From NCBI GenBank assembly GCA_041600715.1, contig JBFIJM010000001.1, forward strand, positions 256,387 through 320,386: 64,000 nucleotides of DNA, given 5' to 3'. The DNA comes from Candidatus Saccharimonadales bacterium (GTDB lineage Bacteria > Patescibacteriota > Saccharimonadia > Saccharimonadales > 2-12-FULL-41-12). The notes beneath the pieces are model-generated. The model did not search any database. It was given only the letters and a program-made list of their open reading frames with translations, and had not been told where the DNA came from. Every line of letters starts with the position of its first letter. Positions within the stretch are counted from its first letter, which is position 1. Made by a program: the position numbers and the translations under genes. Positions 5,239 to 56,373 of this stretch are shown piece by piece.

Positions 5239-5667
5239 TTACTCAGTGAAGTAACGTTTACCTGTTTTATAGGCCTCAATATAGTTATCCATACAACCAA
5301 AAAGGTTATCCGGTAATTCCGTGTCAATATCATACCAACCCCATGAGCGGAGTTTGTGCGGCTCTCCAACTGTTGGTTCACCTGATTTCCATATAGCGAC
5401 CATTCCAATATCGACATAATGCTTAGGCATGTATCGGCGGAGATTTGTTGTACAGAGATAGTCTACTTGCTCGATTTGCATACTAGACCCTGCTTCTTCT
5501 TCTAGCTCACGCAGTATTGACTCTTCAAACGACTCGCCATACTCAAAGTGTCCACCTGGTCCACCGTATTCACCCACTCCATGTGAGCTAATACGCTCAC
5601 CTAGAAGAATTTTATTGTCTCTAACGACTAACAGTCCGAGCCCTACCAACGGTCTTTGCGATTCCAT
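5239..5667 (-). CDS. Nudix hydrolase
   Basis: 142-aa ORF with a Nudix box, GGPGGHFEYGESFEESILRELEEEAGS. It lies between rplO and secY. Confidence 0.85.
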   Translation of the reverse strand: MESQRPLVGLGLLVVRDNKILLGERISSHGVGEYGGPGGHFEYGESFEESILRELEEEAGSSMQIEQVDYLCTTNLRRYMPKHYVDIGMVAIWKSGEPTVGEPHKLRSWGWYDIDTELPDNLFGCMDNYIEAYKTGKRYFTE

Positions 5668-30236: not shown

Positions 30237-30265
30237 AGAATACTTACTAATAGCTTGCTAGTCAA
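30237..30265 (-). promoter_or_regulatory. Candidate rpoB promoter
   Basis: The minus strand reads TTGACT (30260-30265), a 17-nt spacer, then TATTCT (30237-30242). Confidence 0.4.
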
Positions 30266-30762
30266 GTTATACTTTTAGGATTTAGTGCCCTGCTAAAACC
30301 ATAGTGGGAATTATTAGGTTTTATTAAGTTCTTTACCTTATCATCTTCACTCGTTGCTCCTATGATTTTATCGATCATGTATCCAGCAACTCCGGCTTCA
30401 ACAATTCTTGTGTGTGCCATTTCAAGTCCTTGCGGACCAGTATTAAACTTTAGTTCATCCGCGGTTCTCGATGAATAGTGAATTAATGATTTGGCAACAA
30501 TTAACAGTTCATCATTATTGAGAGTAAGAGATGTTTCTCCATTCTGTTTTCTTGCATCAGTAATTTTTTTATGTAAGTGAACTACCCCTCCTTCAAATAG
30601 GGATCGTATTGAGTCTGCCTGAATGTTTTCGGCTACTTGATCACGTTCATACTGTCTAATAGAGTTTAAAACTACACTTGTTTCGCTAAATCCACTTGCT
30701 TGATCAATGCCCAAATTTACACCCCAGTGACATTGGTTGTACGGTGCCTTTGTTATGTCCAT
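30262..30762 (-). CDS. Hypothetical protein (166 aa), paralog of the 30810-31202 gene
   Basis: The segment SIRSLFEGGVVHLHKKITDARKQNGETSLTLNNDELL aligns with TVRDLFRSGIRHMHDSLLRATTEQNETSIMLNEHQL of the neighbouring gene. Confidence 0.65.
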   Translation of the reverse strand: MDITKAPYNQCHWGVNLGIDQASGFSETSVVLNSIRQYERDQVAENIQADSIRSLFEGGVVHLHKKITDARKQNGETSLTLNNDELLIVAKSLIHYSSRTADELKFNTGPQGLEMAHTRIVEAGVAGYMIDKIIGATSEDDKVKNLIKPNNSHYGFSRALNPKSIT

Positions 30763-30809
30763 TACATTCTAGGTTAAACTACTGAGTCGATTATGCAAGC
30801 ATTACCAGT

Positions 30810-31202
30810 TTACTCTGCAAGGTTTTCTTGCACTTTAAGACTAAGTTCATGAGTGACCTGTTGAGCCATCAAATCGTAAGGCGCATCGTTCTGTGACTTT
30901 TGCTTTGCGAAACTTGTAACAGCCTCACCAAGCCACCTGAGTTGGTGTTCATTAAGCATTATCGACGTTTCGTTTTGTTCTGTAGTGGCTCGTAGTAATG
31001 AGTCATGCATATGCCTTATCCCACTTCTAAATAAATCCCGAACAGTCATAGCCTGCACTACATGATCACCGCAACCGTCAGATGTCAGCTCATCCCAATA
31101 AAAGCCAACTGCGTCTGCGACAACCCTTGCTTCTGACAGTAATGGGTCTGACGCCTGTTTGATCTCTAATGAAAACCTACCTGAACCTAAGGATGTTATC
31201 AT
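30810..31202 (-). CDS. Hypothetical protein (130 aa), paralog of the 30262-30762 gene
   Basis: The shared core motif is R-LF--G--H-H...QN(G)ETS--LN---L. I recognise no family. Confidence 0.65.
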   Translation of the reverse strand: MITSLGSGRFSLEIKQASDPLLSEARVVADAVGFYWDELTSDGCGDHVVQAMTVRDLFRSGIRHMHDSLLRATTEQNETSIMLNEHQLRWLGEAVTSFAKQKSQNDAPYDLMAQQVTHELSLKVQENLAE

Positions 31203-31284: not shown

Positions 31285-31872
31285 CTATTCTAATGTCTGT
31301 ATAACATTATCTACAATGCCGTATTGCTTGGCTTCTTTAGACGTTAACCACTTATCTCGCTCCATATCTTCATGGATTTTCTCAGGTTTCTGGCCGGTAT
31401 TTTTAGCCATAATACTTTCGAGCAAACTCTTAATGCGTAACGACTCCTTAAGACTAATCTCTTGATCGGTTACCATACCACGAGTTCCAGATGATGGTTG
31501 ATGGATCATAACTGTACCATGTTGCAAGATTGTTCGCTTACCTTTTGCGCCACTACTTAGTAGAAATGCTGCCGCAGACGCTTGCACGCCTATCCCTACA
31601 GTTGCTACGTCAGGCTTAATATATTGCATAGTGTCATAGATCGCTAGGGCGTCATAAACACTACCACCAGGACTATTTATATAGATTTGAATGTCTTTGG
31701 TTGGGTCTTCATTAGCTAAATGGAGTAGCTGGGCCACAATAATATTTGCGCTATGTTCGTTTACGTCTGTACCAAGAAAAATAATTCTATCTTTAAGCAA
31801 CCGAGAGTATATATCAAATGCTCGTTCATGACGGCCTTCTTGCTCTATAACTGTAGGGATAAGTACTGACAT
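31285..31872 (-). CDS. clpP: ATP-dependent Clp protease proteolytic subunit
   Basis: 195-aa ORF with [18 protein letters not shown] and [19 protein letters not shown], and the catalytic Ser/His context (QASAAAF, MIHQP). Confidence 0.98.
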
Positions 31873-31912
31873 AAATCTGTCCTCGTTTAATAATACTATC
31901 GTAAATCATAAA

Positions 31913-31939
31913 TTAGCACTCGTCAATACAGAGTGCTAA
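31913..31939. promoter_or_regulatory. CIRCE operator (HrcA-type) upstream of clpP
   Basis: TTAGCACTC-GTCAATACA-GAGTGCTAA is a perfect match to the CIRCE consensus TTAGCACTC-N9-GAGTGCTAA. It lies 41 nt upstream of the clpP ATG. On the minus strand the spacer contains TTGACG, a candidate -35. Confidence 0.8.
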
Positions 31940-31965
31940 TTTACTACTTTGTAATTGTTGTTATT

Positions 31966-33252
31966 TTAAACTTTTGCAGAGTCAACTATGAAGTTAACAA
32001 CTTTTTGGCTCAGCATTCGGCTTGCAATATCCCGTCGGGCTTCAGGTTTTTCAAGCTGTTGTTGCATAGTTGGGTCTGTATACTGAGCTTTTAACATTTG
32101 AAGCTGAATTTCTAGTTCCTCTGGTGTGACTATCAAAGATTCTTTCTCTGCAATTTCGCTTAATATTATGCCTGTCTTAACCTGATCACGCGCATTTGGC
32201 TCAACTACTTCTGCCTTATACTTATCTTCGGTGGTTTTCTCTGATTCGATAAACTCAGCAAAAGTCTGACCACGGTAGGTAAGATTTCTTCGTAGTTCAT
32301 CAAGCTCATAAGTAACTTGCTGGTCAATCAAAGCCTGTGGAATCGCAACTTGGCTGTTATCAACAACTTGTTTTAGAAGCTCATTCTGCTTGGCTCGCAA
32401 AACTTCATTTGAAGATTCTTGTTCAAGCTGTTTGCGAACATCGTCTTTTAACTCTTTGAGTGTTTTAAACGGCCCAGCTTTGGATGCTAAATCATCGTCT
32501 AACTTTGGTTTTATAAGCTCATTGACCGACTTAAGATTTACAGTAAATGTTACCTTCTTACTGGCTAATGCTTTCACTCCATAGTCCTTTGGGAACGTAA
32601 GAGTAAAGCTTTTTTCATCGCCTGTTTTCATTCCAATTATGTTGTCTTCAAATCCAGGGATAAAACTATTGCTCCCAATCACAAGTGGATAATCTTTTCC
32701 GTCGGCTCCATTTACAGGCACACCCTTAGAATCGACACCCTTAAAATCAATTGTTGCTTCGTCTCCTTCTTTAGACCCTCTTTCAACAGATTTTTTCTCG
32801 CTCATTCGAGTACGTAGAGTTTCAAGAAGATCCTTAACATCGGCCTCAGTTACTTTTTTATCTTTAACTTTAGTAGTCAGACCCTTATACTTACCGAGCT
32901 TGACCTGTCCAATCACACTAGTACTTACCTCAAACTCAAGCATTGTAAAAGGAACGAATTTTTTTATGTTTACATTGGGTTGAGTTACAGGTCTTACGTT
33001 TTCCTGCTGTGAGGCACGTGAGTAAAGATCAGTCATAGCTTCATCTAAAAATTCAGACTGTAAAATACTGGGTTCAATATTCTTTTCGATGAGTTGTAAC
33101 GGGGCGTTTCCTGCCCTAAAGCCTGGCAATTTAACGTCCTTAGATAATTTTTTTAAGACTTTTTGTTTTGATGACTCTAAATCTTCCGCTGTAGCGGTAA
33201 TGATTAAGGTTATTTCAGACTCACTTATAATAGTTTTTTCTACGTGCATCAA
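31966..33252 (-). CDS. tig: Trigger factor
   Basis: 428-aa ORF with an N-terminal ribosome-binding motif (GFRAGNAP), a central FKBP-type PPIase region, and tig-clpP synteny. Confidence 0.95.
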   Translation of the reverse strand: MMHVEKTIISESEITLIITATAEDLESSKQKVLKKLSKDVKLPGFRAGNAPLQLIEKNIEPSILQSEFLDEAMTDLYSRASQQENVRPVTQPNVNIKKFVPFTMLEFEVSTSVIGQVKLGKYKGLTTKVKDKKVTEADVKDLLETLRTRMSEKKSVERGSKEGDEATIDFKGVDSKGVPVNGADGKDYPLVIGSNSFIPGFEDNIIGMKTGDEKSFTLTFPKDYGVKALASKKVTFTVNLKSVNELIKPKLDDDLASKAGPFKTLKELKDDVRKQLEQESSNEVLRAKQNELLKQVVDNSQVAIPQALIDQQVTYELDELRRNLTYRGQTFAEFIESEKTTEDKYKAEVVEPNARDQVKTGIILSEIAEKESLIVTPEELEIQLQMLKAQYTDPTMQQQLEKPEARRDIASRMLSQKVVNFIVDSAKV

Positions 33253-33285: not shown

Positions 33286-34515
33286 CTAGCGATCGACGAG
33301 AATCGAAGCTATGGTGTCTATCTGACCAGTAATGTCCTTACTATCTACAATGTCACGGAGTACGTACGTACCACTCGATACTTCGTTATCACCGACCATC
33401 ATAATGTATCGTATTCCGAGTTTATCGGCAGATTTGATTTTTTTGTCGAGTTTGCGAGGTGTTGTATCCGTCGCGACGTTTATTCCTTGCTCACGAAGCG
33501 CTTGCACAACTGCGCTTACATCCACGTCGCCGACTGAGGCAACAACGACATCTGTCGCAGGTCGTAGCTTATCAGGTACCAGGTTCCAGGTCTCCAAGAA
33601 ATTCTGTAGCGTCACATCACCCATCCCAAATCCGACTGTAGGCACTGGCTCGACGCCGAAAGCACCAACTAGTCCATCGTACCTACCACCACCAAACATA
33701 CTACGGTTGTTATCTGGGTTTTTATCAAACACTTCGAACACGATATCGGTGTAATAATCAAAGCCTCTGGCAAGACTTGGTGAGGACACGCCACGCACGC
33801 CACGTGACTCTAGTTGCATAATCAAATCTTTGACTTCTAATGAATCACCGTCGCTTGATAAAAAGCCGTACAGTGCGTCTGGCTTCTCTACATGCCCAGC
33901 GAGCTTATCCACGAACGCTGTCTGGTCAAGCTTCTCAAACATATCTATTAAGCGGATTACTTCATTTGCTGAGGTCTTTATTCCTGCTTCATTGACGCGC
34001 TTCTTCAGCAACTGGCGTGAATTAACCCGGATTTCGTACATCTCATCTGTCGCACCAAAGCGTTTCATAATGGCATCTGCCAGCTGAATAATCTCTACGT
34101 CGGCGTCTATACTTTCTATACCAAACACATCAGCGTTTAGTTGCCAAAATTCGCGTAGACGCCCACGCTGAGGTCGCTCATACCGAAAACAGTTCGGAAT
34201 ACTAAACAATCTTAGCGGATAGCCAAGCTCCTGGCGACGAGAAGCCACCAACCGACTAACCGACGGTGTCATCTCTGGCCGCATGACCACACGTCTACCA
34301 CCTCTGTCATCAAAGCTGTAGGTTTGCTCGTTAACGATCTCCTCGCTTGTTTTTGCAGTGTAGAGGTCGATCGACTCTAAAATAGGTGTGTCGTATTCTT
34401 CGTAACCAAAAGACTGGCAAACCTGTCGCATCGTGCCAAACATGTAGTTACGTATCCTCATATCCTCTGGATAAAAATCTCTGGTGCCTTTGTAGCCTAA
34501 CGTACTAAGTTTCAT
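33286..34515 (-). CDS. hisS: Histidine--tRNA ligase
   Basis: The track ORF was trimmed to the ATG at 34513-34515 (MKLSTLGYKGTRDFYPED), which follows a GGAGGA Shine-Dalgarno. Class II motifs are present (RYERPQRGRLREFWQ, GGGRYD). Confidence 0.96.
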   Translation of the reverse strand: MKLSTLGYKGTRDFYPEDMRIRNYMFGTMRQVCQSFGYEEYDTPILESIDLYTAKTSEEIVNEQTYSFDDRGGRRVVMRPEMTPSVSRLVASRRQELGYPLRLFSIPNCFRYERPQRGRLREFWQLNADVFGIESIDADVEIIQLADAIMKRFGATDEMYEIRVNSRQLLKKRVNEAGIKTSANEVIRLIDMFEKLDQTAFVDKLAGHVEKPDALYGFLSSDGDSLEVKDLIMQLESRGVRGVSSPSLARGFDYYTDIVFEVFDKNPDNNRSMFGGGRYDGLVGAFGVEPVPTVGFGMGDVTLQNFLETWNLVPDKLRPATDVVVASVGDVDVSAVVQALREQGINVATDTTPRKLDKKIKSADKLGIRYIMMVGDNEVSSGTYVLRDIVDSKDITGQIDTIASILVDR

Positions 34516-34530
34516 AATTCCTCCTATTAT

Positions 34531-34569
34531 ATACAAAAAAACTAAAAACGCCCCGGAGCATCGGGGCGT
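34531..34569 (-). terminator. Strong intrinsic terminator or attenuator immediately upstream of the hisS RBS
   Basis: The minus strand reads ACGCCCCG-ATGCTC-CGGGGCGT followed by TTTTTAGTTTTTTT. Confidence 0.8.
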
Positions 34570-38866: not shown

Positions 38867-39259
38867 TTGAAGTTTGTTAGTTACTAAGGCACACTAAAAA
38901 GTCGCAGAGAATGTATGACTGATTTAGCGGATTTCGTAGAGTAACATAATTGATTATCATAATAACACTATATAGTGCTAATGTCAATTATTAGTCTGCT
39001 TACACTTCACTAACTACAGAGATATGCAGAATACCTCGACATAAACTCTAAAGCTTGTCCAAAGCTCTGAAAATGCGTCACAGAGCATGTTTTAGCTGGG
39101 GTTCTCGTTCATCTTTTGCACTCTGAAACTACATTCGTACTGTTCACGAGATTTTTTCTGATATTTTTGACCCTTAACGCCATTTTTCTGCCGTACATTT
39201 TCCTTACCTTGTCTGACACCAAATCTCTTAGAAATTGAGTGAGAGCATACAAGTTTTCG

Positions 39260-39508
39260 TTACATTGTCCGATAAGTACCAGAGCATAAATGACAGAGTA
39301 CAAACGTGCTCTGATTTTCGTATGCAGAGATTATCTTCTCAGTAAATAAAGGCTCGGTATTTAAGTAGCGATAGAACGTATCTCTGCTTACCTTAGCGTA
39401 ACGACAAGCGTCAGTGACATTGTAATTATTCTGAATAGCGTCAGCGATTTTGTCCATTATACTGATAGTTATTTTTGGTGGTCTACCATTTGATTTTTTA
39501 ATCATCAA
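39260..39508 (-). CDS. Small helix-turn-helix DNA-binding protein (82 aa)
   Basis: Contains GRPPKITISIMDKIADAIQNNYNVTDACRYAKVSRDTFYRYLN, a typical HTH. It is divergent from the recombinase operon and is a candidate regulator or directionality factor. Confidence 0.65.
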   Translation of the reverse strand: MMIKKSNGRPPKITISIMDKIADAIQNNYNVTDACRYAKVSRDTFYRYLNTEPLFTEKIISAYENQSTFVLCHLCSGTYRTM

Positions 39509-39567
39509 TCCTCCTTTTGTTTTTGGCGTTACCTCTCTTCTTATTATCTCAAAAACAGCATTTTAAC

Positions 39568-39596
39568 TTGACAATGCTTATGTTAAAGAGTATAAT
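39568..39596 (+). promoter_or_regulatory. Consensus sigma-70 promoter of the recombinase operon
   Basis: TTGACA (39568-39573), a 17-nt spacer, then TATAAT (39591-39596). Confidence 0.7.
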
Positions 39597-39694
39597 TAGA
39601 GGTACAGTAGTGAGTGCATTTTGTCACAGTACACGTAGGCACTAGCTAGGAATCTACCCATTAGTCTTTCGTACTTTCGAGTATTGACTGACAA

Positions 39695-39913
39695 ATGGAT
39701 GATAAATCCGAATTACAGTTTCAATCAAACACAATAGACCCGCAGCAAGAGGTAGGGGGTCGTTTTGTTGTATTAAGTAAAAATACCGATCACATAGACG
39801 ATGGGTTGATAGCCTATGCAGATGCTCTTGAAGCCATAGACGAAAACAAAGCAGCAGCAAAACTCAACGAGGTATCCATGATAGGTAATAATGGTAGTCG
39901 TATCTATTACTAA
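39695..39913 (+). CDS. Hypothetical acidic small protein (72 aa)
   Basis: The ORF lies between the promoter and the recombinase gene. No Shine-Dalgarno and no recognisable family. Confidence 0.35.
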   Translation: MDDKSELQFQSNTIDPQQEVGGRFVVLSKNTDHIDDGLIAYADALEAIDENKAAAKLNEVSMIGNNGSRIYY

Positions 39914-39929
39914 TCGGTATCATTAGGGT

Positions 39930-41513
39930 ATGTTGCTGCAAGAAGAAATTGACCGCACCAAATTACGTTACGTGCTATATGCTCGTCGTTCCACCACAGA
40001 TGAGGGTAGCCAGGTTCGTTCTGTACCTGACCAAATCAAGTACTGTAAACGTCACGCAGAGATAGCTGGGCTGAATATAGTAGCTACAGTCAGGGAAAAA
40101 GGGTCAGCTAAAAAGCCTGATAAGAAAATACGACCAAAGTTTTATGATTTACTTGAAGAAATAGAGAATGGTGGCAAGTATGACGCCATCCTTGCATACG
40201 CCCCTGACAGGCTCTCTCGCAATATGTTAGACGGTGGTCGTATCATCAACCTGCTAGACGAAGACAAAATAAAAGACCTACAATTTCCGACGCATCACTT
40301 TACGAACGATCCATCTGGAAAACTCACGCTCGGAATCATGTTCTCTATCTCTAAGCATTTCTCTGATGATCTATCACAGAAAGTGCGTAGAGGTGTATCT
40401 GGTAACTTTGATGACGGTAAATCCTCTGGATCGCCTAAGTGGGGCTATGACCGAAATGAACAGAGTGGGCTTTACGAACCTAACGACTGGTTCAACGTAA
40501 TTCAAGAAGCATGGTTCATGAGAGTAAAAGGCTCTACCAATAAAGCAATTCAAGAGTACTTACTTGAGAAAGATTATCATCGTGTTACTAAGGTAAATAA
40601 AAAGAATAAATACCCGAAGAAGATATATCCGACTGAAAAAAGTGTAGGTGTGATGTTTCAAGACCCTTTTTATTACGGGATACTTGAGCAAGCCAATCAG
40701 ACGATTGACCTAAGAACGGTATACGACTTTGAGCCAATGATTGACGAGGAAACATACAATCAAGTACAAGCTCTAGCTTACACTCGCAAACGTGATATTA
40801 ACCCCAAGAAAGGCTTTGAATTTAAGCCACTCACTAGGATGGTCTATTGTGGCGTATGCAAGAGTGATAGGTGGATGTTAGTAGGCAAAAACAAGCCAGG
40901 CGGTAGCGATCATCACGTCCTAACCTACCGTTGCGACAACAAAGACTGCACTCGCTATCCTAAGTCAGTCAGAGCGAAGTACGTGTTCAACGCTATTTAT
41001 GAGCTACTGGATAAACTAGAGCTGTCAGACGAAGCGTATGAGCGTTACAGCAAACGCATTGAGAGCTTTACAGACGATAAGATCATCAAGATTAAGAGTG
41101 ATATTGCCAGTAAACGTGGTGCGTATGCTCACAAGAAAAAAGAGCTTGATGATCTGTCACTTGGACTTAGTAAAATCAAACGAAGTTCATCAGCTTATGC
41201 AATCAACGAAGATAAGATTGAGCAGCTCGCTATTGAAACTCAAGAACTAGATGATGAGATCGACAAGCTCAAGGAAAAGATTGCTAATCCGAGCAAAATT
41301 AAGCTAACCAGAGATCAGTTCTTGAACCTCGTAAAATTAGCTCCTGACAAGATGAGAGCAGGTTCAGCAGTTGAAAAAGATCGTGTTGCGCGGATTTTGT
41401 TCTTGAACCTAACAATTGACAATGAAAAAAGGGTCTTCCCAATCTGGAAAGAACCCTTTGCAAGCCTTGTAAAGGCGATTGAAATGTCGTCTGGTGCGCG
41501 AGAAAGGACTTGA
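39930..41513 (+). CDS. Large serine recombinase (integrase)
   Basis: 527-aa ORF with N-terminal resolvase-type catalytic domain motifs (YARRST with Ser nucleophile, PDRLSRN), a central recombinase domain, a Cys cluster (CGVCKS...YRCDNKDC) and a C-terminal coiled coil. Its stop codon lies inside attR. Confidence 0.9.
   Translation: MLLQEEIDRTKLRYVLYARRSTTDEGSQVRSVPDQIKYCKRHAEIAGLNIVATVREKGSAKKPDKKIRPKFYDLLEEIENGGKYDAILAYAPDRLSRNMLDGGRIINLLDEDKIKDLQFPTHHFTNDPSGKLTLGIMFSISKHFSDDLSQKVRRGVSGNFDDGKSSGSPKWGYDRNEQSGLYEPNDWFNVIQEAWFMRVKGSTNKAIQEYLLEKDYHRVTKVNKKNKYPKKIYPTEKSVGVMFQDPFYYGILEQANQTIDLRTVYDFEPMIDEETYNQVQALAYTRKRDINPKKGFEFKPLTRMVYCGVCKSDRWMLVGKNKPGGSDHHVLTYRCDNKDCTRYPKSVRAKYVFNAIYELLDKLELSDEAYERYSKRIESFTDDKIIKIKSDIASKRGAYAHKKKELDDLSLGLSKIKRSSSAYAINEDKIEQLAIETQELDDEIDKLKEKIANPSKIKLTRDQFLNLVKLAPDKMRAGSAVEKDRVARILFLNLTIDNEKRVFPIWKEPFASLVKAIEMSSGARERT
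41492..41512. repeat. attR: repeat copy forming the 3' end of the intact tRNA-Leu
   Basis: TGGTGCGCGAGAAAGGACTTG is identical to 36463-36483. Confidence 0.85.
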
Positions 41514-41576
41514 ACCTTCACGCCCGAAGGCACTAGTTCCTAAGACTAGCGTGTCTACCAATTCCACCACTCGCGC
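41492..41576 (-). tRNA. tRNA-Leu (anticodon UAG), CCA encoded
   Basis: Hand-folded cloverleaf of GCGCGAGTGGTGGAATTGGTAGACACGCTAGTCTTAGGAACTAGTGCCTTCGGGCGTGAAGGTTCAAGTCCTTTCTCGCGCACCA. It has a 7-bp acceptor stem, anticodon stem CTAGT/ACTAG with loop CTTAGGA, a long variable arm (GCC-TTCG-GGC) and a T-loop TTCAAGT. Confidence 0.9.
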
Positions 41577-50600: not shown

Positions 50601-50671
50601 CTCCTGGAACAAATCGTCAAGCCTATGTACGTTCAAATAATGGTGTTGTCTCTGCGACAATTGGTCTTTAG
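47663..50671 (+). CDS. Class A penicillin-binding protein (transglycosylase/transpeptidase) with a C-terminal Ig/FN3-like extension
   Basis: 1002-aa ORF with GT51 motifs (EDKDFFNHGG, GGSTITQQLVK) and transpeptidase motifs (SSFKP, SRN, KTGTT). The N-terminus has a basic tail followed by a TM segment. Confidence 0.93.
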   Translation: MKNPIKRKGSAKSGLHSQSQHHITKSGNKIKLNQNMVGRIKAKRDARARKKAAYLATLPKGRLQRALYRMHPRRVAKYWFSREGGIMALKIAGIGALASFLFLIGIFAYFRKDLPNLRDISGNNIGGSIRYYDRTGQTMLWEDYDAVKRIPVQEENQAQVIKDATIAIEDKDFFNHGGFDVKGITRAGVNNFVGKSGTTQGGSTITQQLVKLTQNWSTEQTYTRKVKELILSVELERSYTKQEILAGYLNTAPYGDITYGVEAAMQDYFNKSAKEITLDEAAFLAAIPKSPTYYSPYGASYKKEALIGRQHYILDLMVEQNKITSDQAKEAKTIDTLAKIKPRKPKYDGIQAPWFVLTAKEKLTQMRGANTVALGGLKVTTTLDMEKQKIAEEEVQKGLKQVQRQGGDSVAFVAEEVATGQVVALVGGTDFNNEEYGQNNYARSKLPPGSSFKPYDYLSAIEHTDQFGAGSVLYDTQGPVDGYPCTNKARPQNGGNCLHDYDFRYPGPLTLRYALGGSRNVPAVKAMAIVGVDKTIKTAESMGLKDTGDDRVEGQGYKCYEDDGLTKESPCYTSSALGDGAYLKLDEHVHGYSTMSRNGNLIPQTYILKIEDSRGEVVEEWKPSEGKQVVRDESAYIVADMLQDPKASYFARKAHTYNGHKFALKTGTTNDSKDGWMMGFSTQYSAGVWVGYHNRQVELTGFMERMTEPIWSGWMKRTHQNLEPKERPRPAGIKEQPAFVVRNHVGVGSIEPSPSNDLFPSWYKTKSKTGGRQTIDKVSNKLATDCTPDMAREEVGNANANQFSADRFVDGGGSANTTERDDVHKCEDAKPSVTLTVGGGNGSYLMTATASQGTHPISSDRFRGTLNLKVDGNVVASFEVGSSPSTFSHQVTGIGPGTHAFSAEIIDSVLYSNSDTKNVEVAAEPPKTITLSKTGGPVNFKFSWNPVSGASSYTVCATSNENPSEQCESSSGTTIQMNIPPGTNRQAYVRSNNGVVSATIGL

Positions 50672-51381
50672 TTATTTGGTTTCGATGGGCGAGAATTAAT
50701 AGTTGATGCACGCTTTGCAAACATCATTTTGCCAGCTTCAGTTTGAAGCATTCGTGTAACTGAGACTTCGACTTTCTTTCCTATCATGTGTCCGGCACCG
50801 CTTACTACCACCATTGTTCCATCTTCTAAATAGCCAACACCCTGGTCTTTGCTACTACCTTTTTGAACAATTTTAACTGTTTGCTTTTCACCGGGTAGTG
50901 CTACAGGTCGGACGCTTTGAGCTAACTCGTTTAAGTTCAACACCCTAACACCCGCAATTTTGGCAACTTTATTGAGATTATAATCAGTTGTACAAAGATC
51001 ACCAGACACTTTAACAGCCATTCTTACCAACTTATCATCAGTTGCTTTCTCCGCAGGGAAATCATCTTCTGTTATGATGACCCTGTCTGTTAGTTCCTCC
51101 TGAAGCACACTTACCATATCAAGTCCAAAACGAGCTCTTTCGCGCTTATGAGCATCCCCTCCGTCTGCCAGAAGTTGAAGCTCATGGACAATAAATCTAG
51201 GTACAATCAATCTATCAGGAGCAAACCCTGCTTTAGCGACATCTACTATCCGTCCATCAATAAGGGCACTAGAATCGAGAACTAAGGCCCCTCTGTTACG
51301 CTTAGTCCTGTTCTGCTCTTTCTGACTTATAAGTATTAACAAGATAGTTACTAGTAAGGTAATATGAATTATTTCAAGCAT
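50668..51381 (-). CDS. PIN/TRAM domain protein (YacL-like)
   Basis: 237-aa ORF with an N-terminal TM segment, a PIN-like region (VLDSSALIDGRI) and a C-terminal TRAM-like region. It sits immediately downstream of radA, as is common. Confidence 0.75.
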   Translation of the reverse strand: MLEIIHITLLVTILLILISQKEQNRTKRNRGALVLDSSALIDGRIVDVAKAGFAPDRLIVPRFIVHELQLLADGGDAHKRERARFGLDMVSVLQEELTDRVIITEDDFPAEKATDDKLVRMAVKVSGDLCTTDYNLNKVAKIAGVRVLNLNELAQSVRPVALPGEKQTVKIVQKGSSKDQGVGYLEDGTMVVVSGAGHMIGKKVEVSVTRMLQTEAGKMMFAKRASTINSRPSKPNN

Positions 51382-51396
51382 TATTTTCGTCCTTTT

Positions 51397-52752
51397 TTAT
51401 GTCTTTAAATATCTATTTAACGCTTCACGAACATCAGTCACAGGCTGTAAGATATCAACTTTTTTGCCCTTTTTGGCCGACTTTGGCCCAATCGCAATAT
51501 CAAAACCTAATTTAACAGCCTCTGAAATTCTCTTTTCAGAAAAAGGAACATGGCGTACCTCACCTGACAGTCCAACTTCACCAAAGACAACAGCATGCTC
51601 CTTGAGTTGCATACCTTTGCTAGCTGAGGCAATTGCCAAGCATACCGCAAGATCAACTCCAGGATCAACGATTTTAAGACCCCCAACGATGTTTATATAG
51701 ATATCCTGATCGTGTAATTGAAGCTTCGTTCTTCTTTCAAGCATTGCGATCAATAAATTGAGTCTATTTAACTCAATTCCGCTTGATGCCCTTTTAGGAT
51801 ATCCATATGACGTTTTATTCACTAAAGCTTGTACCTCGACAAGCATTGGTCTACTGCCTTCCATTGTTGCTAATACAATGGATCCATCTGTTACTTGACG
51901 TTCACTAAGGAGAGCTGCGGATGGGTTTTCTACTTGTATTAAGCCCTCTTCCTGCATTTCAAATATGCCTGTTTCGCTTGTGGCTCCGTAACGATTTTTG
52001 ATACTTCGTAATACTTTAAATCCACCATACCTATCCCCTTCAAGTTGTAGGACGGTATCTACTACATGTTCTAGTACTTTAGGTCCAGCTATTGATCCTT
52101 CTTTAGTAACATGCCCAACCAATATAATCGCTGTATTGGTCTGCTTAGCTGTAGTAATGAGCATATGAGCACAATTTGTTATTTGAGTTACACTCCCCGC
52201 TGCAGACGGAACAGAATCAGTAGTAATCGTCTGGATTGAATCCACGACTACTACATCGTATTTTCCTTCATGAATTGTCTTCAATATATCTTCCACGGTC
52301 GTCGTCGTAGCTAGTTGGATATTACTTTTTGCAACTCTTAAACGCTCAGCACGAAGACCGACCTGATGGGCTGATTCTTCACCGCTCGCATATAGAGTTT
52401 TGACGGTTTTAGATAAACCAGCAGAAAGCTGGAGCATTAATGTACTCTTTCCAATTCCGGGCTGGCCGGCTATAAGAGTTACGCTACCCCTTACTAACCC
52501 ACCTCCTAGGACATTATCAACTTCTGATATACCGCTCAAAATTCTTTCTGAGTTGTCTGATGTGGAAGCATTGCCTATTAGGCTTATCTCTAAATTTTTG
52601 CCTGATGATAAGGCCTTGCCTTTGGGAGATATAAGCACTGCTTCTTCTTGCAGAGTATTCCATTCTCCACAGTTGCTACATCTCCCTGACCATGCAGAGA
52701 ACTGAGCGCCACAGTTATTGCATACAAACTTACTAACAGATTTCTTTACCAT
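51397..52752 (-). CDS. radA: DNA repair protein RadA/Sms
   Basis: 451-aa ORF with a zinc finger (CNNCGAQFSAWSGRCSNCGEWNT), Walker A (GQPGIGKST), a KNRYG motif and a Lon-like C-terminal domain. Confidence 0.97.
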   Translation of the reverse strand: MVKKSVSKFVCNNCGAQFSAWSGRCSNCGEWNTLQEEAVLISPKGKALSSGKNLEISLIGNASTSDNSERILSGISEVDNVLGGGLVRGSVTLIAGQPGIGKSTLMLQLSAGLSKTVKTLYASGEESAHQVGLRAERLRVAKSNIQLATTTTVEDILKTIHEGKYDVVVVDSIQTITTDSVPSAAGSVTQITNCAHMLITTAKQTNTAIILVGHVTKEGSIAGPKVLEHVVDTVLQLEGDRYGGFKVLRSIKNRYGATSETGIFEMQEEGLIQVENPSAALLSERQVTDGSIVLATMEGSRPMLVEVQALVNKTSYGYPKRASSGIELNRLNLLIAMLERRTKLQLHDQDIYINIVGGLKIVDPGVDLAVCLAIASASKGMQLKEHAVVFGEVGLSGEVRHVPFSEKRISEAVKLGFDIAIGPKSAKKGKKVDILQPVTDVREALNRYLKT

Positions 52753-52792
52753 CTATAATGTATTCTAACTTGATGGAGACTATATGAACAGG

Positions 52793-53761
52793 TTACTGAG
52801 TTTTAGGTATTGAGTTGGCGTCAATTGCCTCGACTAACTCCGCTTCTGTTGTCGCAAGATTATTACGTTCCTCTACGATCTTATTAAACTCTTCAACTTT
52901 TGATTGAGTGCGGTTAATTAAAGCATTATGAGCGTTAACCAAAGCATTAAATTCGGGCACGTTGGCGTTGTATTCTTCAATTCTATTGGCAGATAGAAGT
53001 GCATCTAGTTGTCGCTTTTGCACATCGATATCTCTTTCTGAGGCTTGGAGTTGAGATTGATTTGACTCAATTGTTGCTTTTAAAACTTCTAGTCGGGCAT
53101 CGAGTGTTTTTACCTGGTTTTCGAGGTTAATAAAGGTCTGTTCGTACTTCTCAGAGTATGCGACAATTGCCTGTCGTTGATCAAAGTATCTTGCATAATA
53201 TTGCTCTAGTTCTGGTGTAAGTTCTCTGACTTCACTTGCTAGGATCGAATGCAGTTCATTTGGGACAATAGATGGATCCTTCTTTTTGTAGTTATCAACG
53301 GTCTTTTTTATACGGTCGTTATCAAGTGTTGCGAAGAATTCGGTGGTCATTCGGTCTACTTCAGCTCTCTCCTTACTACTGAGCCGATCATAGAATGCAT
53401 GTAGGACTTCATGGGCAGCGGTTACTTGTAATATACCTTCTAACCTCGGATCTCCAACTTTAAGTAGGTATATTCCATCATTTGAAACATAACATCCAAG
53501 CACTATAGTCTGCTCAGACTGGGTACAAGATATCCGAAATTGCTGCTTGTCTAGAATTTCGGGGTGATTAATATAAAATACTTTTCGGGTCTGAGCATTC
53601 ATAGTTGTTTGATCAGCTAAAGTAACGAGTTGCTGTGAAGGCGTGTAATTACGCAGAGCTATCCAATCAAGAATGTCTCTAGCATTAGCCACTGCGTATA
53701 TAGATCCACCAAGCACTGCTAAGCTCAGGACGACACTCGTGATTCGAGAGTAGTTTTTCAT
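52793..53761 (-). CDS. Membrane-anchored hypothetical protein with an HExxH motif and a coiled-coil C-terminus
   Basis: 322-aa ORF with an N-terminal TM segment (ITSVVLSLAVLGGSIYAV), AAHEVLHAF (HExxH), and a long heptad-like Q/E/L/N-rich C-terminal third. Confidence 0.65.
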   Translation of the reverse strand: MKNYSRITSVVLSLAVLGGSIYAVANARDILDWIALRNYTPSQQLVTLADQTTMNAQTRKVFYINHPEILDKQQFRISCTQSEQTIVLGCYVSNDGIYLLKVGDPRLEGILQVTAAHEVLHAFYDRLSSKERAEVDRMTTEFFATLDNDRIKKTVDNYKKKDPSIVPNELHSILASEVRELTPELEQYYARYFDQRQAIVAYSEKYEQTFINLENQVKTLDARLEVLKATIESNQSQLQASERDIDVQKRQLDALLSANRIEEYNANVPEFNALVNAHNALINRTQSKVEEFNKIVEERNNLATTEAELVEAIDANSIPKTQ

Positions 53762-53804: not shown

Positions 53805-56273
53805 TTATTCCTTGGTAACACTATAGCTAAGCTTGCCTGCCTTGGCTTTAACAGTCACTAGATCACCTGTTACATAACGCCCGTCCAACAATCCGTTCGA
53901 GATTTCATCTTCAAGAGTCTCTTGAAGAAGCCTACGAAGTGGTCTGACTCCGTTCTTAGAGTCATACCCTGAAATAGCCAAGTATTTTTTCGCTGAAGGC
54001 ATCACCTTTAAGCCCAGACCTTGATGTACTAGACGATTTTCGAGCTCTCCAAGCTGTAAATCTAGTATCTTAGAAATTTCATCTTTATTTAGTGCTCTAA
54101 AGACGATTGTATTGTCAATGCGGTTAAGAAGCTCGGGTCGCATTATCTTTTCGAGCGAGTCCTTAACATTTTGCTTATTTCTTTCATGCAGATTATCGAG
54201 ATCTTTTTGTTCTTTTTTAGAGTTTATATCAAAACCCAGTTGTGCTTCTTTCTGCAACTTTTCTGCTCCAATATTGCTCGTCATGATAACAATAGTGTTG
54301 GTAAAATCAATGATTCGACCTTTTCCGTCTGTTAGCCGGCCATCTTCTAAGATCTGAAGCATCATGTTAAATACATCTGGATGGGCTTTTTCTATTTCAT
54401 CAAACAACACTACGCTATATGGCTGGCGACGAATTTTATCTGTGAGTTGACCGCCGTCGTCATATCCTACATACCCTGCAGATGCGCCCACAAGACGAGA
54501 AACATTGTGATGCTCACCAAACTCACTCATGTCTATCTTGACAAGGTTATCTTCACTACCAAAAAACTCACGAGCTAATACTTTTGCCAGTTCTGTCTTA
54601 CCTACTCCAGTCGGGCCTAAGAATATAAAAGACCCAATAGGGCGACGAATATCAGAAATACCACTACGACTTCTACGTACTGCCTTTGACACTGCACTAA
54701 TTGCTTCGTCTTGACCGATAATGTGTGACGCTAAAGTTTTCTCTAAATTCAATAAATATTTCGCTTCTGACCGGATCACTTTTGTCACCGGCACCCCAGT
54801 GATTCTTGCTACAACTGAAGCCACATCGTCACTAGTAAGTACTAATTTTTTACCATTTTTATACTCACCTTGTAGCTCTGTCACTTCACGGGTCAGCTGA
54901 CTTGCCCTAGTTTTGTAGCGCGCCGCAGCTTCGTAATCTTCAGCTGCAGCAGAATCTTCAATTCTAACCTGCAGTAGCCTAAGCTCTTTTTGCGCTTTAC
55001 GTAATTTTGGCGGGGTCTTTCCTTTATCTACGCGTAGATGCGCACTTGCTTCGTCCATTAAATCTATCGCCTTGTCCGGCATAAACCTATCGTTTATGTA
55101 GCGTTTAGCGAATCTGGCTGTATCTTCAATCACTTCATCACTAATAATTACATTATGGAAGGTTTCATAATGCTTCTTCAAACCCTTTAATATTTGCACT
55201 GTTTCGCTTTCTGTTGCCTCAGGCACTGTTACAGGCTGGAATCTACGCTCAAGGGCTGCATCTTTTTCTATATATTTGGTATATTCGTCAGTGGTTGTAG
55301 CCCCAATCATCTGCATCTTACCTCTAGCTAAGGCTGGTTTTAGCATATTTGCAGCATCTAATGCGCCTTCTGCAGCGCCAGCCCCTACTATAAGGTGTAG
55401 CTCATCAACAAAAATTATAGTTTTGGTGTCATTTTCAAGCTCTGCCATTACCTTCTTAAGACGTTCTTCGAATTCTCCACGGTACTTTGTGCCAGCGATC
55501 ATGGCAGCTAGATCTAGCATGACGATTCTTTTATCTAACAAGCTATCTGGGACATCTTCCGCGACAATTCTAGCAGCGAGACCTTCAACAATAGCGGTCT
55601 TACCCACACCAGGCTCACCTATAAGCACCGGGTTATTCTTGTTTCTACGGCTTAAAATTGTGATAACGCGCCGTATTTGAGCTTCTCTACCCACCACAGG
55701 ATCAAGTTTATTGCGCCTTGCCTGTGCTGTTAAATCAGTACCAAAAAAATCAAGCGCCGTCTTTTTTTGCTTTTTACCCTTACGAGTTGGGCTCATTCCG
55801 CCACCGCTTTCTTGCTGTCTTTGCAAAAACTGTTCTAATTCTTGTAGTAGTGTATTAACAGGAATATTGAGATCATGAAGCAACTCTGACGCACGTGCGT
55901 TTTTCTGACTAAGGATACTGTATAAAATATGCTCCGTACCTACAAAGTCTTGACCGAACTCATGAGCTAGCTCATAAGCCATACGAAGAGTAAGTTTTGC
56001 TACCTCGCTCAATCCCTTAGCTTCGTTAACCCTTAGCGGAGTCGACTGCACACTTAATATCGAACGGGCTTTAGACAAAGTCACACCTACGCCATCAAGT
56101 AACTTTGCACCCATGGAAGATTCTTGCGCCAGGACGCCCAGTAGTAAATGTTCGGTGCCAACATATGGATTGCCATTTCCTCTTGCGATTGCATCTGCAT
56201 TACGTAGAGCACCAACCGCATTTTCAGTTAGGTGATTTAAAAAGTCTTGATAATCAGGTGAAGGAGGCATCAT
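53805..56273 (-). CDS. clpC: ATP-dependent Clp protease ATP-binding subunit ClpC
   Basis: It has Clp_N repeats, two AAA+ modules ([16 protein letters not shown]) and a UVR-like linker ([14 protein letters not shown]). The start was moved from the track's TTG at 56297 to the ATG at 56271-56273, which follows an AGGAA Shine-Dalgarno. Confidence 0.93.
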
Positions 56274-56326
56274 AACATTCCTACTTTCTGGCAACAATTA
56301 TTTTGTCACTATATCTATAATACCAA

Positions 56327-56353
56327 CTAGCACTCTATAGTCAAGAGTGCTAA
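56327..56353. promoter_or_regulatory. CIRCE-like operator upstream of clpC
   Basis: The minus strand reads TTAGCACTC-TTGACTATA-GAGTGCTAG, with a 9-nt spacer and one mismatch to the consensus. The arms extend to 56321-56359, and the spacer contains TTGACT, a candidate -35. Confidence 0.7.
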
Positions 56354-56373
56354 TTGGTATTATTAAGTACTTT

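Follow-up and report, generated by a model that had tools for sequence, protein, structure and literature searches.

A perfect CIRCE inverted repeat with an embedded -35 box upstream of clpP, and a predicted HrcA regulon that includes ClpP and ClpC in Saccharibacteria

The DNA analyzed here is a stretch of 64,000 nucleotides (64 kb) from a Candidatus Saccharimonadales bacterium and is referred to as the window. The minus strand of the window carries, in order, hisS, tig, clpP, two ORFs without a family assignment, rpoB, and rpoC. The features of the clpP region are as follows.

33286-34536, minus strand: hisS, upstream of tig
31966-33252, minus strand: tig (trigger factor), the upstream neighbor of clpP (TIGR00115, 356 bits)
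31913-31939, no strand assigned: perfect CIRCE inverted repeat, the predicted HrcA operator of clpP (consensus match and conservation at related clpP loci)
31921-31926, minus strand: -35 hexamer TTGACG of the predicted clpP promoter, composed of CIRCE spacer positions 5-9 and the first base of the right arm (promoter scan)
31898-31903, minus strand: -10 hexamer TACGAT of the predicted clpP promoter (promoter scan, TTGACG-17-TACGAT)
31882-31886, minus strand: Shine-Dalgarno-like GAGGA, ending 9 nt before the clpP ATG (read from the sequence)
31285-31872, minus strand: clpP, the proteolytic subunit and the gene under the predicted operator (NF001368, 282 bits against a cut-off of 249)

The closest ClpP among the matches listed from species-representative genomes belongs to a Candidatus Saccharibacteria metagenome-assembled genome (78% identity), and the others are at most 61% identical. 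The interval between clpP and rpoB is the usual place of rplJ-rplL. In the window (30262-31202) it holds two ORFs of 130 and 166 aa, which have no match among NCBIfam or Pfam families and may be co-transcribed with clpP. Southlakia epibionticum has the order hisS-tig-(hypothetical)-clpP-(hypothetical)-rpoB-rpoC, with an ORF lacking an assignment at the same spot between clpP and rpoB (PMC10633639 supplement).

The sequence at 31913-31939 is TTAGCACTCGTCAATACAGAGTGCTAA. On the coding strand it reads TTAGCACTC-TGTATTGAC-GAGTGCTAA and agrees with the CIRCE consensus, TTAGCACTC-N9-GAGTGCTAA, at 18 of 18 arm positions. Exactly two sites with three or fewer mismatches exist in the window, this one and a second at 56327-56353 with a single mismatch. 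The expectation from shuffled sequence is 0.03 sites per window, and two sites occurred in 0 of 100 shuffles. A weight matrix built from 67 related CIRCE sites gives the two sites scores of 34.3 and 32.4 bits, and the next-best position in the window scores 5.1.

The second site precedes the ATG (position 56276) of the gene for an 823-aa Clp ATPase by 50 nt. The features of this region are as follows.

56327-56353, no strand assigned: second CIRCE, matching at 17 of 18 arm positions, the predicted HrcA operator of clpC; TTAGCACTC-TTGACTATA-GAGTGCTAG on the coding strand
56339-56344, minus strand: -35 hexamer TTGACT of the predicted clpC promoter, CIRCE spacer positions 1-6 (promoter scan)
56317-56322, minus strand: -10 hexamer TATTAT of the predicted clpC promoter (promoter scan)
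53805-56276, minus strand: clpC-type Clp ATPase (Clp_N, two AAA modules, short middle region, LGF loop)
50668-53761, minus strand: 322-aa coiled-coil protein, radA, and PIN/TRAM protein, probable downstream members of the clpC operon (gaps of 15-43 nt)

The Clp ATPase contains the Pfam domains Clp_N, AAA, AAA_lid_9, AAA_2, and ClpB_D2-small, and scores below the ClpB and ClpA equivalog cut-offs. Its translation contains AQLGFD and with it an (L/I/V)GF loop, the loop that docks onto ClpP. It is 100% identical to P0121, and its homologues, from Ca. Saccharibacteria or Saccharimonadales, are named ClpC or Clp ATP-binding subunit. By its domain content the protein is ClpC-type and not ClpB, because it combines Clp_N repeats and two AAA modules with a short middle region and the LGF loop.

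The three genes downstream of clpC are probable members of its operon. Upstream of clpC are an ORF without a family match and then nusA. The order clpC, 322-aa protein, radA, PIN/TRAM is kept in nine related loci (L281-L289) and in Southlakia, where the published order is nusA-clpC-(hypothetical)-radA (PMC10633639 supplement). The window and Southlakia thus share both the hisS-tig-clpP-rpoB and the nusA-clpC-radA orders. The 322-aa protein carries a HEVLH motif, and its Southlakia homologue resembles a zincin or M48 peptidase fold (PMC10633639 supplement).

Both sites are combined with a predicted promoter, and in both cases the -35 box lies inside CIRCE, with the -10 box 16-17 nt further on. 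The clpC promoter, TTGACT-16-TATTAT, is preceded by TG and matches at 10 of 12 positions in the promoter scan. The same arrangement recurs in relatives. A -35-like hexamer is present inside CIRCE in 67 of 67 related clpP loci analyzed, and a TAnnnT box follows it after 16-18 nt in every one of them. A further locus (L146), whose spacer contains no TTG, was left out of the 67. In 34 loci the embedded -35 box covers spacer positions 1-6; in the other 33 it runs from spacer position 5 through position 9 and into the first base of the right arm. It is mostly TTGACn, with a weaker TTG-type box at two or three sites. Because the -35 box falls within CIRCE and the -10 box lies 16-18 nt away in all 67 loci, the predicted promoter and operator are one module, which is kept in two registers.

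An earlier reading made from the sequence alone had drawn attention to this site, and most of its description stands. It had called the palindrome a perfect CIRCE and named tig and clpP as the flanking genes; both statements are correct, and both genes are on the minus strand. It had likewise pointed to a CIRCE-like site upstream of clpC, which is the one-mismatch site described above. The placement between tig and clpP holds, but its distances of 41 nt to the clpP ATG and 27 nt after the tig stop codon become 40 and 26 nt. It had also placed TTGACG in the spacer as an overlapping -35 element. The overlap is real and is universal among the 67 related loci, but the hexamer is not wholly within the spacer, as its last base is the first base of the right arm.

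The distance between promoter and gene varies among relatives. In 38 of the 67 loci (for example, L082, L085, L113, and L143), the clpP start codon is located 1-9 nt, mostly 6-9 nt, after the predicted -10 box. This short distance predicts leaderless clpP mRNAs in many Saccharibacteria. By contrast, in the window (31873-31912) clpP would have a leader of about 25 nt with the ribosome-binding site GAGGA. No paper on leaderless mRNAs in Saccharibacteria was found among the top-ranked literature search results.

Conservation of the palindrome at orthologous clpP loci had been set beforehand as a test of the sequence-only reading. A metagenome scan with the trigger factor of the window returned 80 loci with trigger factors that are 43-71% identical to it. 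The clpP test set consists of 68 loci in which the 5' end of clpP is present and preceded by 300 nt or more of sequence; 67 are from the trigger-factor scan. The remaining one (L001) is the sole Saccharibacteria locus among the matches listed in a scan of contigs with ClpP, and the rest of those matches served as a control from other phyla. A CIRCE with three or fewer mismatches is present within 300 nt upstream of clpP at 68 of the 68 loci. The sites are perfect in 34 cases and have one mismatch in 25, two in 8, and three in 1. The control loci (Bacillota, Actinomycetota, Desulfobacterota, Nitrospirota, and others, among the matches listed) have a CIRCE upstream of clpP in 0 of 79 cases.

The site is also specific in its placement. 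The 707 kb of tig/clpP loci contain 72 CIRCE sites, at most one per locus and each at clpP. The contig ends before clpP in four loci (L112, L138, L141, and L144), where the CIRCE is found just downstream of tig. Where an extra gene separates tig from clpP (for example, L085, L090, L100, and L103), the CIRCE still adjoins clpP. The nine related clpC loci (L281-L289) represent six distinct sequences besides the window, and each has one CIRCE approximately 50-60 nt upstream of clpC, so the site is present in 7 of 7 distinct loci with the window included. No other CIRCE exists in the 191 kb of clpC loci beyond the nine at clpC, and none was found in a further 105 kb of related sequence. CIRCE at clpP and clpC is a lineage-wide feature of Saccharibacteria, extending to all genomes sampled.

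CIRCE matches were also seen in IMG/VR contigs. Several of these contigs carry more than one perfect copy: L220 has three copies exactly 49 bp apart (5424-5548), and two are present in each of L227 and L241. A perfect copy stands at either end of L180; this pair is probably the terminal repeat of a circular contig. In other IMG/VR contigs, CIRCE with an embedded TTGAC precedes hsp20-like and clpB-like genes. None of the viral-contig matches is Saccharibacteria-like; they are Firmicutes-like or other cellular fragments (hsp20, clpB, groEL, and one high-GC hrcA).

The cognate repressor of CIRCE is HrcA. No hrcA was found in the 64-kb window or in any related locus by tblastn and phmmer with a B. 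subtilis HrcA query. This query is 99% identical to P0001 and reaches 402 bits with TIGR00331. Searches by the same two programs found none of dnaK, groEL, groES, grpE, dnaJ, lepA, gmk, eno, gpmA, sodA, or arcC in the window or the related loci. A protein-database search with B. subtilis HrcA returned Bacillaceae only among the best 120 matches listed.

A candidate is present in Southlakia. SEML1_0720 is a 729-bp gene annotated as "transcriptional regulator" with PF01628, PF03444, and K03705 assignments (PMC10633639 supplement). In 1STZ, a structure of Thermotoga HrcA, its 242-aa product maps to domains 1 and 3, and the gene comes first in an hrcA-grpE-dnaK cluster (PMC10633639 supplement). 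The mapping covers two of the three 1STZ domains only, the winged-helix and the sensor domain. The Saccharibacteria lineage appears to have HrcA, because SEML1_0720 carries PF01628 and PF03444, is assigned K03705, resembles 1STZ, and has grpE and dnaK as neighbors. The Saccharibacteria homologue is not named HrcA by the NCBI pipeline. In the Southlakia transposon screen, SEML1_0720 was scored as essential and clpP, clpC, and tig as non-essential (PMC10633639 supplement). The score for SEML1_0720 may reflect polarity on grpE-dnaK, or the regulon may genuinely have to be kept repressed. One comparison in a published data set for TM7x has groES/EL, dnaK/J, grpE, radA, and the gene of a Clp ATPase, two locus tags away from radA, all shifting the same way, which is weakly suggestive of a shared regulator. 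Literature searches found no paper that links HrcA or CIRCE with Saccharibacteria or Patescibacteria.

A gene similar to the alpha/beta hydrolase of the window lies two genes from the Southlakia hrcA. The homologues of this hydrolase are located in variable regions without hrcA or CIRCE. In the window, the hydrolase and NUDIX genes, which in relatives belong to variable accessory regions, lie beside a 527-aa large serine recombinase (39930-41513, Resolvase and Recombinase domains). The recombinase gene ends within a tRNA-Leu gene (41492-41576) that is encoded on the other strand, and the roughly 1 kb before the recombinase contains short ORFs only, one of them HTH-like (window 38900-41576). 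This region looks like a small integrated element, or a remnant of one, beside tRNA-Leu.

Clp genes are normally controlled by CtsR or sigma-32 (PMC3842655, PMC545781), and neither system could be recognized here. The CtsR heptad repeat (RGTCAAANANRGTCAAA) is absent from both intergenic regions (31873-31965 and 56277-56373) with up to three mismatches allowed, and no ctsR, mcsA, or mcsB is present upstream of the window clpC. CtsR (class III) control was rejected on the lack of a heptad repeat in either intergenic region and of ctsR before clpC. CtsR is also absent from the Southlakia annotation tables (PMC10633639 supplement), and Saccharibacteria appear to be without it. Over the whole window, the CtsR pattern with up to three mismatches has 18 matches where 9 are expected, a number reached in 0 of 100 shuffles. 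None of these matches is upstream of a clp gene and most are within coding regions; the excess is probably an effect of composition or codon usage. The sigma-32 promoter, CTTGAAA-N13-15-CCCCATNT, tested with a 14-nt spacer, has no match in either intergenic region and was rejected, and its count in the window equals the chance count.

The pattern of variation among the sites bears on what the palindrome does. Over 67 distinct sites, the core GCACTC-N9-GAGTGC is near-invariant, with a single substitution of C to G at position 7. Otherwise, only positions 1, 3, 25, and 27 vary. Most of this variation is non-compensatory (A3/C25 nine times and C1/A27 eight times), and compensated pairs are rarer (G3/C25 once and C1/G27 three times). 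Because the outer positions vary without compensation while the core sequence stays, selection seems to act on base identity and not on pairing, which points to a protein-binding site rather than an RNA hairpin. This matters for the alternative in which the palindrome is mainly an RNA hairpin, that is, an intrinsic terminator or a stabilizer at the 3' end of the tig transcript, and is no protein operator. The transcribed strand does fold into a stem of 12-14 bp with a ∆G of -19.4 kcal/mol (z = -3.6), UUUAUGAUUU follows it, and its location 26 nt past the tig stop codon is suitable. A terminator scan of 31700-32100, however, finds none at the clpP site, and the core is kept by sequence rather than by pairing; an intrinsic terminator was rejected on the scan and on the non-compensatory arm variation. 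Where other genes intervene, the site tracks clpP and not tig, and the same element is found upstream of clpC behind unrelated genes. Near clpC the terminator scan has one match, at 56328-56352 on the plus strand, where no gene ends. A terminator would also leave the conserved -35 and -10 boxes unexplained. A known Rfam element was rejected as well, as the intergenic regions have no Rfam match. A hairpin as the main function is thus considered highly improbable, although a secondary, minor terminator role at the 3' end of the tig mRNA may exist beside the operator role.

Alternatively, the operator may be real but serve another protein, either a regulator that is not HrcA or a short HrcA-like one whose signal is not GroE availability. 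In that case clpP and clpC would be a separate regulon. The restriction of CIRCE to clpP and clpC over about 1 Mb of related loci is in keeping with this, as is the truncation of the lineage's HrcA homologue, which falls below the NCBI naming threshold. It is nevertheless unlikely, given the identity at 18 of 18 arm positions with the CIRCE that HrcA binds from Firmicutes to Proteobacteria (PMC545781), and given that PF03444, the HrcA DNA-binding domain, is present in the sole known candidate of the lineage, which precedes grpE-dnaK. Chance, or a non-functional remnant, can be given next to no weight against an expectation of 0.03 sites per window and conservation at 68 of 68 and 7 of 7 loci whose trigger factors are only 43-71% identical to that of the window.

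The reading preferred here takes the 27-bp palindrome for a working operator through which HrcA controls clpP; the comparative evidence makes this likely. In the reduced genomes of Saccharibacteria, the chaperone repressor HrcA very probably controls the ClpP/ClpC protease, the principal proteolytic machinery, too. The sequence-only reading had proposed an HrcA regulon extended to the Clp machinery. This is supported by the comparison of loci (68 of 68 for clpP and 7 of 7 for clpC, with no CtsR box or sigma-32 promoter).

In the proposed mechanism, CIRCE is fused to a sigma-70-type clpP promoter, with the -35 box in the spacer and the right arm at the start of the interval that separates the -35 and -10 boxes. 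With both arms occupied by an HrcA dimer, the -35 box and part of the promoter spacer would be hidden and RNA polymerase excluded. We infer this occlusion from the location of the -35 box inside CIRCE, from which it follows that a bound repressor would block the polymerase. Under stress, unfolded proteins would titrate GroEL/ES, HrcA would become inactive, and clpP would be transcribed. The DNA specificity and GroE dependence of the short Saccharibacteria HrcA are assumptions of this model. An operator-promoter of the same design would drive clpC and probably the 322-aa gene, radA, and the PIN/TRAM gene. Both ClpCP subunits would then be de-repressed together with the chaperones.

Compared with classical CIRCE/HrcA systems, the inverted repeat is the same 9-N9-9 element and would likewise repress a sigma-70-type promoter, and hrcA in Southlakia heads a grpE-dnaK cluster as expected. 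The targets differ, as ClpP and ClpC are under CtsR in B. subtilis. In addition, the operator here contains the -35 box, whereas the classical operator is downstream of the promoter, and the HrcA of the lineage is about 100 residues shorter. The order clpC...radA...PIN/TRAM (yacL-like) is also that of the CtsR-controlled clpC operon of Firmicutes (ctsR-mcsA-mcsB-clpC-radA-disA-yacL), but ctsR, mcsA, and mcsB are missing here and CIRCE replaces the CtsR heptad repeats.

The sequence-only reading had also drawn a parallel with genome-reduced bacteria. It holds for Mycoplasma pneumoniae, where HrcA acts on lon, clpB, and the peptidase genes pepA and pip, and a CIRCE lies between tig and lon (PMC7737663). 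The HrcA regulon of M. pneumoniae and M. genitalium comprises dnaK, dnaJ, groESL, clpB, lon, pepA, and pip. As in Saccharibacteria, the genomes are reduced, a single heat-shock repressor also governs a quality-control protease, and the order is tig, CIRCE, protease. The protease there is Lon, however; ClpB is a disaggregase, and M. pneumoniae is without ClpP. The lon gene is also read from the tig promoter, whereas clpP here has a dedicated predicted promoter inside CIRCE.

Clp genes with a CIRCE and a response to HrcA are known from Firmicutes. The clpP gene of Streptococcus salivarius is cited as being under dual regulation by CtsR and HrcA (Chastanet and Msadek 2003, cited in PMC3842655), and clpL of Lactobacillus gasseri is HrcA-dependent (PMC3192767). 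In those cases CtsR is retained and the link is confined to one species or genus, whereas here there is no CtsR box, both clpP and clpC have the site, and the whole sampled lineage shares it. The operator described here is canonical, and its targets and lineage are new; protease control by HrcA is already known in Mycoplasma and some Firmicutes. Distinctive are the coverage of both ClpCP subunits, the universality in the sampled lineage, and the apparent loss of the CtsR system.

These elements can be joined into one reading, which is offered tentatively and may well not hold in full. In it, a truncated HrcA of about 240 aa, apparently without the 1STZ middle domain and scored as essential in the Southlakia screen, would be the single proteostasis regulator. 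It would have taken over the whole of ClpCP and the clpC-radA operon from the missing CtsR by means of 27-bp promoter-operator units, in two registers and often with leaderless mRNAs.

The mechanism would be that of ordinary CIRCE, and the established picture is extended and not changed. In a reduced genome, a conserved protease operon would have exchanged CtsR for HrcA as its regulator. The compact promoter-operator of about 45 bp is a possible stress-responsive expression element for genetically tractable Saccharibacteria. Gene regulation in the candidate phyla radiation is almost unexplored, and the predicted HrcA-ClpP/ClpC connection would provide a concrete regulon link in all sampled Saccharibacteria.
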